Shown one piece after another: positions 7,479 to 10,400 of a stretch of 64,000 nucleotides of DNA. How positions within the stretch are numbered: position 1 is the stretch's first letter; the number at the start of each line of letters is the position of its first letter. A model generated the notes under the pieces. The model was not told the DNA's origin and ran no database searches. It was given only the letters and a program-made list of their open reading frames with translations. The translations under genes and the position numbers were made by a program. The stretch is from Escherichia phage PE37, in sequence record NC_054929.1; one strand, 5' to 3'.

Positions 7479-10400
7479 TTATTTTAACAATGATTTAACT
7501 AATGCTTTAAGTTCTTCAATTTCTGATTTAAGTTCCGCAATTTCTGCAGTATGCTCATTGATTGCAGCTGTATTTAAACCAATTACACCGTTATAGTTCA
7601 AACGAAGTAAAGCTTCGCCATCATGGTCACCTTCAACTAATTCAGGCAAAATAGCTTGAACTTCTTGAGCTATCAAACCGGCGTTAGGTTCCCATTTCTG
7701 ATTGCCTTCTTCGTCCGTTCCACGTTTCTGCATATAAGTGTAACCGTTAATTTTAGAAAGCTTCTGAGAAGCATTTTCAAATTTAACGAGGTCTTTTTTA
7801 ACACGAATATCAGAACGGACATAAACATCACGGACAAACGTTGAATAACTATCATTTGCCTGAACGAGATGCCCATGAGAAACGATAGCTCTTCCAACTT
7901 CTGTCCAAAAAGCACCGGTTGAATCCCAAAGCCCAGGATGAGATTGATAGCCTGCTCCCCAGTTTGCAATATGTATACCATTGGCAACCATATTGATTCG
8001 GCCGTCACCGCCATGAACTAATCCAGTATCATTATCACCAATAACAAGACATGGTCCAGTCCACACCGGGTCACCACCGCCAGCTGATAATCTTGCTCCA
8101 GCTTGAACCATATTAGGAGCATACAGAACTCCATTGTGGTGGAATTCATAGATAGCTTGTGGGTCAGAACCGTTTTCCTGGTTACCTACACGAATAATAC
8201 CTTGTGCCCAGTTATTAGTAATGCGACGCATACCAAAATCAACGCCAGATATGTATCCTTCATTCGTAATAGCAGATTTTCCTTTAATAATAGGATAATA
8301 ACTATCATTACCAACATTACCAAAATCTACAAATATCGGAGCTTCTTGTCGCCATTGGTTTCCCCAATCGCCAGCCTGGTGCGCAGTCCATTGTGTACCG
8401 TTTATATGAAGGCGGTCTCTATTAAAATTAAATGTTCCTTGACCTTGAGGAGAAAGCGATATTTCGCCGTTATTTGTTATGTATACACCACCCTGTGTAA
8501 TGTAACTGTAAAAACCTAGACCGTTGTCGCCGCCACCTTTGCCTATATACCAGTTACCTGTACCACCTACATCGCTACGGATGTGCGATGAAGCACCCAC
8601 GCCTGCAGTTAAAACAAGAGCATCATTGCCTGCCGATAAAGTCAATTTACCGGTCATCGTGTCGCCTTCTTTAGACACACGGGAGGCAATAGCATCGTGA
8701 ATGTTAGTTATATCACCAGCTGAAGTAAATGTTTTCCAAATATCAGACCAGATGTTACCATTGCGAGCAATAGTAGCTTCACCGCCACCGACTTGAACGT
8801 TATCCGGGAAGTTAACAGTACCGTCTTGATTAAAACGAGACGTATGGCCTTGTGAACCATCTTCTTTCAGATGATGAATAACGAATGTACCCGAATTAAT
8901 TTCAGTACCTAAAGACCAAACGGATTTACCGTTTAGAAACTTCTGTTTAACAATAGGATAATATTTGCTTACAGCATCATCATCGATTTCCTGGAAAATA
9001 GGAGCTGCTTGAACATATTGAATATCATAACCACCAGCCCCAGCGCCGTGACCAGTAAATTTAATATAACCGTTTGCTGCGAACGTATTGTAACTTGATT
9101 GTAAATCTGGAATAGTAACTTTACCAGTATCTAAAGCCATACTAAACGGGCGAAGTGGACCGATATCACCATGTTTACCTTCACCGTAAGCAGTTGGAAT
9201 AATATGAAGACTGCCTTCTGAACGTCTAAAAATAGCTCCATAATCTGCATTCCAAATGCGAAGCGCATTCACTGCTCCAGATGAAATTTCGCCTGTTGTG
9301 TGAACTCCTCTATTTCCAGCAGTAACACCGGATGATTCAAATGAACCGTTAACGTTCATTTCTACTTCACCAGTAGTAAGTCTTTGAATATAGCTCATCC
9401 AACTAGTTGCATCAGAAATTTCCATGACATTTTTGCGATTACCTTCACTAGGAATAATAAATGTATTACCCCACACGGAAATTGTCATATTATCAACTGA
9501 ACTACTACCAGTTGTGTTACCTCTAAACATCAGTGTAGAAGCATTATTTCTACCATCGATATTAACAGAACCACCAATAACGTCAATATTGCCTGGAGTA
9601 ACTAACAAACCGCCGTGAGTATTAATGTTTGTAGTGCCCTTGCCGCGGAAATAATGATGATAGTTACCGCCTTGATAATATCCTAAAAGAGTCTGACCAT
9701 CTCCAAACGCGTTATTATCATGATATGTAACAACAGTAGCGAGAGCATAGTTTTCAGTCGGAGGAGTAGTTAAATCGGTTCCATTAGTAGAATACCCAGC
9801 TACAAATTTTCTTAGGCTAGTTGTTTCGCTAGGGCTAAATAAAAATGTTTTTGTTCCATTATTAACACTGAAATAATATCCGTCTTGATGCCATTTAAAT
9901 CCAGTATCATTATCTCCTAAAGCGATACTAGACGGTCCTAATATTGAGTAATCCTTAGGTCCGGGTGTTAAACCGATGGAAATTGAGTGACTTGATTTAA
10001 TTCCGCCGCTCCAAGTAAATGACCAAAGATAAGCGTCTAATCCATCTCCACTATACCATGTTATTCCATCATTATCTTTAACTTCATGGAAAATACCAGA
10101 ACCAACGGCATTACGCATGACACGAAGATGATTAATAGCAGTAGTGCTTTCAGACAATGGAACATTGTCTGCCATCGAATAGATGTCATAATCACCCGTA
10201 AATTTATTATTAGTAATGACTTTGTTGGTCAGAATTTGTGGAGACGAAATAGATTTCCATGCTGATACTTCAGGTGAAGTAAATAGTCCACTGCCTGAAA
10301 ATGCATAAGTGCTTTCGCTACCAGCGGCGTAGTCTTGAACCCTGATATTAAGTACTTGTGTAGTTAAACCATCATTAGCCGGGGCATAAATGATTCCGCG

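Follow-up and report, generated by a model that had tools for sequence, protein, structure and literature searches.

A Peptidase_S74-type intramolecular chaperone domain at the C-terminus of gp37 in Escherichia phage PE37 and its predicted cleavage ahead of gp38 docking

Introduction

The chaperone domain of the K1F endosialidase endoNF (PDB 3GW6) is the founding member of the Peptidase_S74 family. Fibres with self-removing C-terminal chaperones are described for S16, K1F, phi29 and T5 (PMC7289586). In T5, the chaperone contains a coiled coil, a Ser/Lys mechanism cuts the Thr1263-Ser1264 bond so that the serine departs with the chaperone, and the Ser1264Ala substitution blocks autoproteolysis (PMC4690869). 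The active-site geometry in T5 requires an Arg from the neighbouring chain, and Arg1250/Asp1239 act as an upstream folding 'sensor' of the neighbouring chain and form the oxyanion hole (PMC4690869). The literature is not uniform on which side of the serine the cut falls.

Among phages whose gp37 is capped by a gp38 adhesin, S16 is reported to have a chaperone that, once gp37 has trimerised, cleaves itself off and lays bare the surface on which gp38 docks (2021 paper, PMC7917993); the cut is at DLNVS^SDRRIKK (Dunne et al. 2018, cited through PMC7917993; ^ marks the cut). The gp37 tip of S16 has three hydrophobic pockets, related by symmetry, which receive three Trp residues of gp38 (PMC6851490, PMC7917993); the chaperone domain goes unmentioned in the description of the gp37-gp38 interface in the CASP13 highlights (PMC6851490), and PMC12892980 and PMC10175313 contain nothing on cleavage. 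The gp37 proteins of T2 and T6 are cleaved C-terminally and then capped by gp38 (Drexler, Riede & Henning 1986, as cited in PMC3157838), and a cleavage site, DVYIR^SDGRLKI, has been predicted for gp37 of the Yersinia Tequatrovirus phages fPS-2/-65/-90 (PMC7917993). In T4, receptor binding falls to the tip formed by the gp37 C-terminus, and gp38 serves as an assembly chaperone that is released (PMC6851490, PMC3157838). Published work from 1986 to 2018 already covers the domain family, how T-even gp37 is processed, and the tie between this processing and gp38 docking: C-terminal processing of T2 gp37 has been known since 1986, and work on S16 in 2018 connected cleavage to the docking of gp38. 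Here, we describe how the gene 37-gene 38 locus of Escherichia phage PE37 compares with these systems.

Results

The window analysed is a 64,000-nucleotide (64-kb) stretch of the PE37 genome (NC_054929.1), numbered from its first letter. At the DNA level, its gene 37-gene 38 region was 94.5% identical to that of Escherichia phage EC121 and approximately 90-93% identical to those of AR1, pSs-1, Sf23 and many further Tequatrovirus records, and a 24-kb stretch elsewhere in the window was 96.6% identical to RB68/RB51. Because of these identities, we regard the window as an ordinary T-even (Tequatrovirus) genome segment. No family reached its gathering score in an Rfam scan of the whole 64-kb window, and a tRNA scan of the same stretch returned no tRNA gene; no group I intron family was detected in the window despite the nrdA/nrdB-type genes indicated by the RB68/RB51 matches.

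Gene 37, which is terminated by a double stop (TAA TAA), matched PHROG 1699 ('long tail fiber protein distal subunit') with 1362 bits over residues 1-1102 (Table 1). Its open reading frame encodes exactly the 1103-aa precursor that the sequence-only reading had predicted, with a computed mass of 118.8 kDa. An NCBIfam search with gp37 and gp38 returned no family. In the gp37 shaft, Pfam detected PF21446 Gp34_trimer (33.7 bits, cut-off 27), the domain through which the proximal fibre subunit trimerises, and the module is therefore common to gp34 and gp37.

Table 1. Coordinates of the features at the gene 37-gene 38 locus, as positions in the window
Feature	Position	Strand	Basis
Gene 37, long tail fibre distal subunit precursor	7479..10790	minus	ORF listing, PHROG 1699
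PF21446 Gp34_trimer match in gp37 shaft, residues 448-550	9141..9449	minus	Pfam
Adjacent mature tip, gp37 residues 851-992	7815..8240	minus	pN/pS segment
D988-V-Y-V-R992, predicted C-terminal beta-strand of mature gp37 (gp38 docking tip)	7818..7832	minus	Homology
Predicted scissile bond R992-S993	7812..7817	minus	Alignment to S16, T5, 3gud
Codon of S993, predicted nucleophile	7812..7814	minus	Alignment
Codon of K998, predicted general base (Ser + 5; counterpart of T5 Lys1269)	7797..7799	minus	Alignment
C-terminal intramolecular chaperone/autoprocessing domain, S993-K1103	7482..7814	minus	PF13884, 6f45_A, fold matches, pN/pS
Peptidase_S74 Pfam stretch, residues 993-1052	7635..7814	minus	Profile positions 1-57 of 58
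Long C-terminal helix, residues ~1066-1102	7485..7595	minus	AlphaFold model (fragment H86-122), pLDDT 85-95
Intercistronic C(UUCG)G tetraloop hairpin, 7-bp stem	7458..7475	minus	Sequence, RNA fold
gp38 Shine-Dalgarno, GGAGG	7453..7457	minus	Sequence
Gene 38, T2-type glycine-rich adhesin, 259 aa	6668..7447	minus	Pfam, PDB matches

The motif SDIRVKKD occurred once in gp37, at residue 993, and translation and a script confirmed both the exact coordinates of the 111-residue tail that had been proposed to start there and all the motifs quoted for it. This tail, with a computed mass of 12.35 kDa, runs to the stop codon and thus forms the extreme C-terminus. The proposal that it resembles the chaperones of endosialidases was borne out by profile searches: PF13884 (Peptidase_S74, "Chaperone of endosialidase") scored 47.7 bits against the whole of gp37 and 53.8 bits (E 2.4e-14) against the C-terminal fragment, the curated gathering score being 22 bits, and the alignment began exactly on S993. 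Proteins at least 96% identical to the fragment in a public protein collection already carry a precomputed PF13884 assignment. In a sequence search of the PDB, the best match was 6f45_A (E 9.5e-35), the S16 gp37 chain of the gp37-gp38 tip complex, in which the stretch YCRDLNVSSDRRIKKD pairs with the start of the domain and SDRRIKKD lies under SDIRVKKD. The S16 gp37 C-terminus was 57% identical over the domain, a longer alignment giving 52%. With a profile made from 17 homologues, further matches were obtained to MYRF (7dc3, 2.4e-13), to a tail fibre (8jov, 1e-9) and to the released neck-appendage chaperone of GA-1 (3gud, 3e-4); the 3gud chain starts with SDERHK at the very serine aligned to S993. 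The homologue set was later widened by tblastn against phage genomes; 1395 phage records, spread over many genera, have a homologous domain at the C-terminal end of a fibre, and the matches in 30 PHROG tail-fibre families were all C-terminal.

We then considered the fold. When the last 123 residues were modelled as a monomer with AlphaFold (mean pLDDT 82.5), a small alpha/beta unit came first and one helix of 37 residues followed, the predicted arrangement being that of the Peptidase_S74 fold. The coiled-coil-like terminal segment noticed from the letters alone corresponded to this one continuous helix, whose best heptad register places L/I/V/M at 8 of 12 a/d positions; this helix would be the part that assembles into the chaperone's trimeric coiled coil. 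Structural comparison retrieved the MyRF ICA domain (7dc3, score 8.5), the K1F endosialidase chaperone domain (3gw6, 6.5), the GA-1 neck-appendage chaperone domain (3gud, 4.8) and T5 pb1 with its chaperone domain (4uw8, 4.5). The fold search with the domain model did not retrieve 6f45, though the deposited 6f45 sequence includes the domain, which is consistent with the chaperone domain being missing from the crystal.

Candidate catalytic residues were located by alignment. S993, D994 and K998 (column K26) were invariant in all seven of a diverse set of fibres, namely those of the window, T2 (AP018813), S16, a T5-like Epseptimavirus, a Synechococcus phage, Thermus phage TMA and a Vequintavirus, and in the alignment of 17 sequences the K998 position was conserved to 90% or more. 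The S993/K998 pair coincides with T5 Ser1264 and Lys1269 and lines up with SDRRIK of S16, SDERHK of GA-1 and ADLRAK of MYRF, the crystallised MYRF chain having Ala where Ser aligns. The gp37 junction reads DVYVR^SDIRVKK when aligned to the published cut sites, and cleavage between R992 and S993 is therefore predicted. By homology, then, the scissile bond is most likely R992-S993, on the N-terminal side of the serine, and S993 would be the first residue of the released chaperone. The predicted products are a mature gp37 of residues 1-992 (106.5 kDa) and a 12.35-kDa fragment. The sequence-only reading had the tail cleave itself off at a Ser-Asp junction. Its reading of an autocleaving domain is supported by the intact S993/K998 and the homology to S16 and T5; the bond it named was slightly off, the predicted cut lying ahead of the serine and not behind it.

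Immediately upstream of the predicted cut, the DVYVR strand was invariant in five close relatives. R987 and D988, 6 and 5 residues ahead of S993, were considered as a folding sensor of the K1F/T5 type. The pair is common to S16 (CRDLNVS) and absent from T2 (NAPNVYIR).

Gene 38 is the next gene directly downstream of gene 37. Its product matched PF05268 GP38 (242.9 bits) and PF21721 Gp38_N (76.7 bits), as well as S16 gp38 (6f45_D, E 2.5e-52). The match to 9v85, in which PP01 gp38 was crystallised as part of a GFP fusion, was closer still (E 1.6e-142), with only 2 mismatches among 219 aligned residues from G41 on. PP01 gp38 is an OmpC-binding adhesin for E. coli O157, and this near-identity of sequence suggests a PP01/AR1-like receptor specificity for the window phage. 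Within the N-terminal attachment domain, W7, W20 and W35 aligned with Trp residues of S16 gp38; an adjoining glycine-rich gp38 and three aligned Trp are what characterise adhesin-capped fibres of the T2/S16 type. We placed the gp38 start at ATG 7447, because Gp38_N begins at residue 5 of the open reading frame and relatives annotate 780-nt genes. The start given by the mechanical open reading frame, TTG 7459, was rejected, the codon lying inside the hairpin/Shine-Dalgarno region.

Along the minus strand (7445-7481), the gene 37 stops are followed by the hairpin, GGAGG and the gp38 ATG. The UUCG hairpin was present in both the MFE and the centroid folds, the z-score of its 51-nt context being only -2.1; its role may be to make the transcript more stable or to tune the translation of gp38. 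In one related phage record, a 'terminator' is annotated at this site.

To describe selection along gene 37, pN/pS was calculated for eight segments across six closely related gp37 genes. The chaperone domain (residues 993-1103) had the lowest value of the eight (pN/pS 0.08, pS 0.185), close to that of the N-terminus (residues 1-100; 0.09, pS 0.162), and the adjacent mature tip (residues 851-992) had the highest (0.29, pS 0.363). The domain, which is predicted to be lost from the virion, thus belongs to the most strongly constrained stretches of gene 37. The lower pS of the domain (0.185 vs about 0.35) suggests that recent recombinational sharing may also contribute to its conservation, beside selection. 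At the protein level, 174 phage records share the domain at 95% identity or more, and gene 37-gene 38 DNA reached at least 95% in just 15. Compared with the five relatives, the domain of the window carries two private substitutions, T1043 for Leu and H1073 for Pro/Gln. Two plus-strand open reading frames, 7656..7844 and 7271..7498, were rejected as genes, being short and unsupported and set against a minus-strand frame under strong purifying selection.

The corresponding domain of T2 (T2 gp37 C-terminus, L001:5757-6053) is 99 aa long and 33% identical to that of the window over the alignment. The window type is nearer to the domain of S16 (52%), a phage of another genus, than to that of T2 (33%), and these sequence identities suggest that the chaperone domain has been exchanged as a cassette.

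Discussion

The closest characterised counterpart is the S16 fibre, in which the domain occupies the same gene and position, a T2-type gp38 with three N-terminal Trp follows, and SDRRIKK stands for SDIRVKK. The two systems differ in domain length (113 residues in S16 vs 111 here), in the residue before the cut (Ser vs Arg), in the tip strand (DLNVS vs DVYVR), in an upstream shaft unrelated in sequence and in genus (Gelderlandvirus vs Tequatrovirus). T2 shares the genus, the gene order 36-37-38-t and a nearly equal junction (NVYIR^SDIRLK vs DVYVR^SDIRVK), whereas its domain is of another subtype, with 99 aa, and its gp37 has 1341 aa rather than 1103. The fPS phages have DVYIR for DVYVR, a single conservative change between two sites that are both predicted, and differ at the start of the chaperone (SDGRLKI vs SDIRVKK).

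More distant members depart further. K1F endoNF carries the domain on a tailspike enzyme, with extra 'tentacle' hairpins and a chain far longer than 111 aa; identity is just 12-13%, and K1F receives no adhesin cap after release. The T5 domain has 133 aa with long beta-hairpin tentacles, and the freed T5 tip itself binds the receptor without a separate adhesin. In MYRF, the ICA domain (PDB 7DC3) is internal to a membrane-bound transcription factor, and its cleavage frees a DNA-binding fragment. T4 has homologous gp37 N-terminal and shaft regions and the same gene order. Unlike T4, as that phage has been described, gp37 here ends in an S74 domain, so that it has a chaperone of its own, and gp38 is a PF05268 adhesin.

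Taken together, we consider it very probable that residues 993-1103 of gp37 are a Peptidase_S74 intramolecular chaperone that works as follows. The C-terminal helices, as a trimeric coiled coil, and the alpha/beta subdomain would bring three nascent gp37 chains into register, and this register would nucleate folding of the trimeric beta-structured fibre tip, starting from the C-terminus. In a correctly folded trimer, K998 would activate the S993 hydroxyl and the R992-S993 bond would be cut in every chain, releasing a chaperone trimer of roughly 3 x 12.35 kDa and leaving a mature gp37 (residues 1-992, 106.5 kDa) that ends in ...RDVYVR. The exposed flat trimeric tip would then be capped by a single copy of gp38, the three conserved Trp of its N-terminal helical domain plugging the three symmetry-related pockets of the tip. 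The identity of the domain, its catalytic residues, its predicted fold, the purifying selection on it and the presence of gp38 come from the comparisons above, and we infer the cleavage itself, its exact bond and the order of events from homology. The earlier suggestion that removal of the tail exposes the gp37 tip for gp38 agrees with the accepted mechanism, for which S16 is the precedent (PMC7917993), and by analogy would apply here.

An S74-type homologue could instead be retained in the mature fibre as a non-cleaving structural or trimerisation module, with gp38 binding elsewhere. Trimerisation through a coiled coil alone needs no removal, and cleavage in this phage is itself read from its relatives. 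Nevertheless, the Ser/Lys dyad is intact and invariant, S16 as the closest characterised homologue (57% over the domain) loses the domain and carries gp38 on the new C-terminus, and gp37 of T2 and T6 is cleaved, which together make retention highly improbable. Another possibility is that a separate host or phage protease cuts off the segment and the Ser-Lys motif is merely its recognition mark, a reading left room by the T2/T6 sources, which establish processing without a mechanism (PMC3157838). This too we regard as very unlikely, since homologous domains produced recombinantly on their own in E. coli process themselves with no further phage protein present and lose this ability through one Ser-to-Ala substitution (T5, PMC4690869), and since the human homologue MYRF contains this domain in an entirely different cellular setting. 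Coiled coils do yield spurious matches and the two plus-strand open reading frames (62 aa and 75 aa, respectively) exist, yet a chance or low-complexity similarity, or coding on the other strand, has a negligible probability given that what Pfam matches is the non-helical opening stretch of 60 residues and not the coiled coil, that E-values go down to 1e-35 and that the codon-level pN/pS of 0.08 falls in the gp37 frame.

Within the preferred reading of a self-removing chaperone, we see one unexplored angle, which is speculative. The trimeric helical bundle of the chaperone might serve as a subtype-matched placeholder in the hydrophobic tip pockets that are later filled by the three-helix attachment domain of gp38, or the released 37-kDa trimer might have a second role in the infected cell; we hold this pair of ideas to be very unlikely. 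If the placeholder idea were true, the chaperone subtype and the gp38 N-terminal subtype would co-evolve as a hand-over pair. Beside this question of subtype matching, we observe that the window-type and T2-type domains are just 33% identical and their cleavage junctions near-identical.

The gp37 finding adds nothing new to the biology of these fibres, and its value lies in annotation and engineering. For annotation, the true C-terminus of virion gp37 would be residue 992 (106.5 kDa) rather than that of the 1103-residue, 118.8-kDa precursor, and the cleavage site would define the surface that seats the host-range adhesin gp38. When gp37/gp38 modules are swapped or recombinant fibres are produced, the chaperone domain should be kept in the construct and its absence expected from the product.
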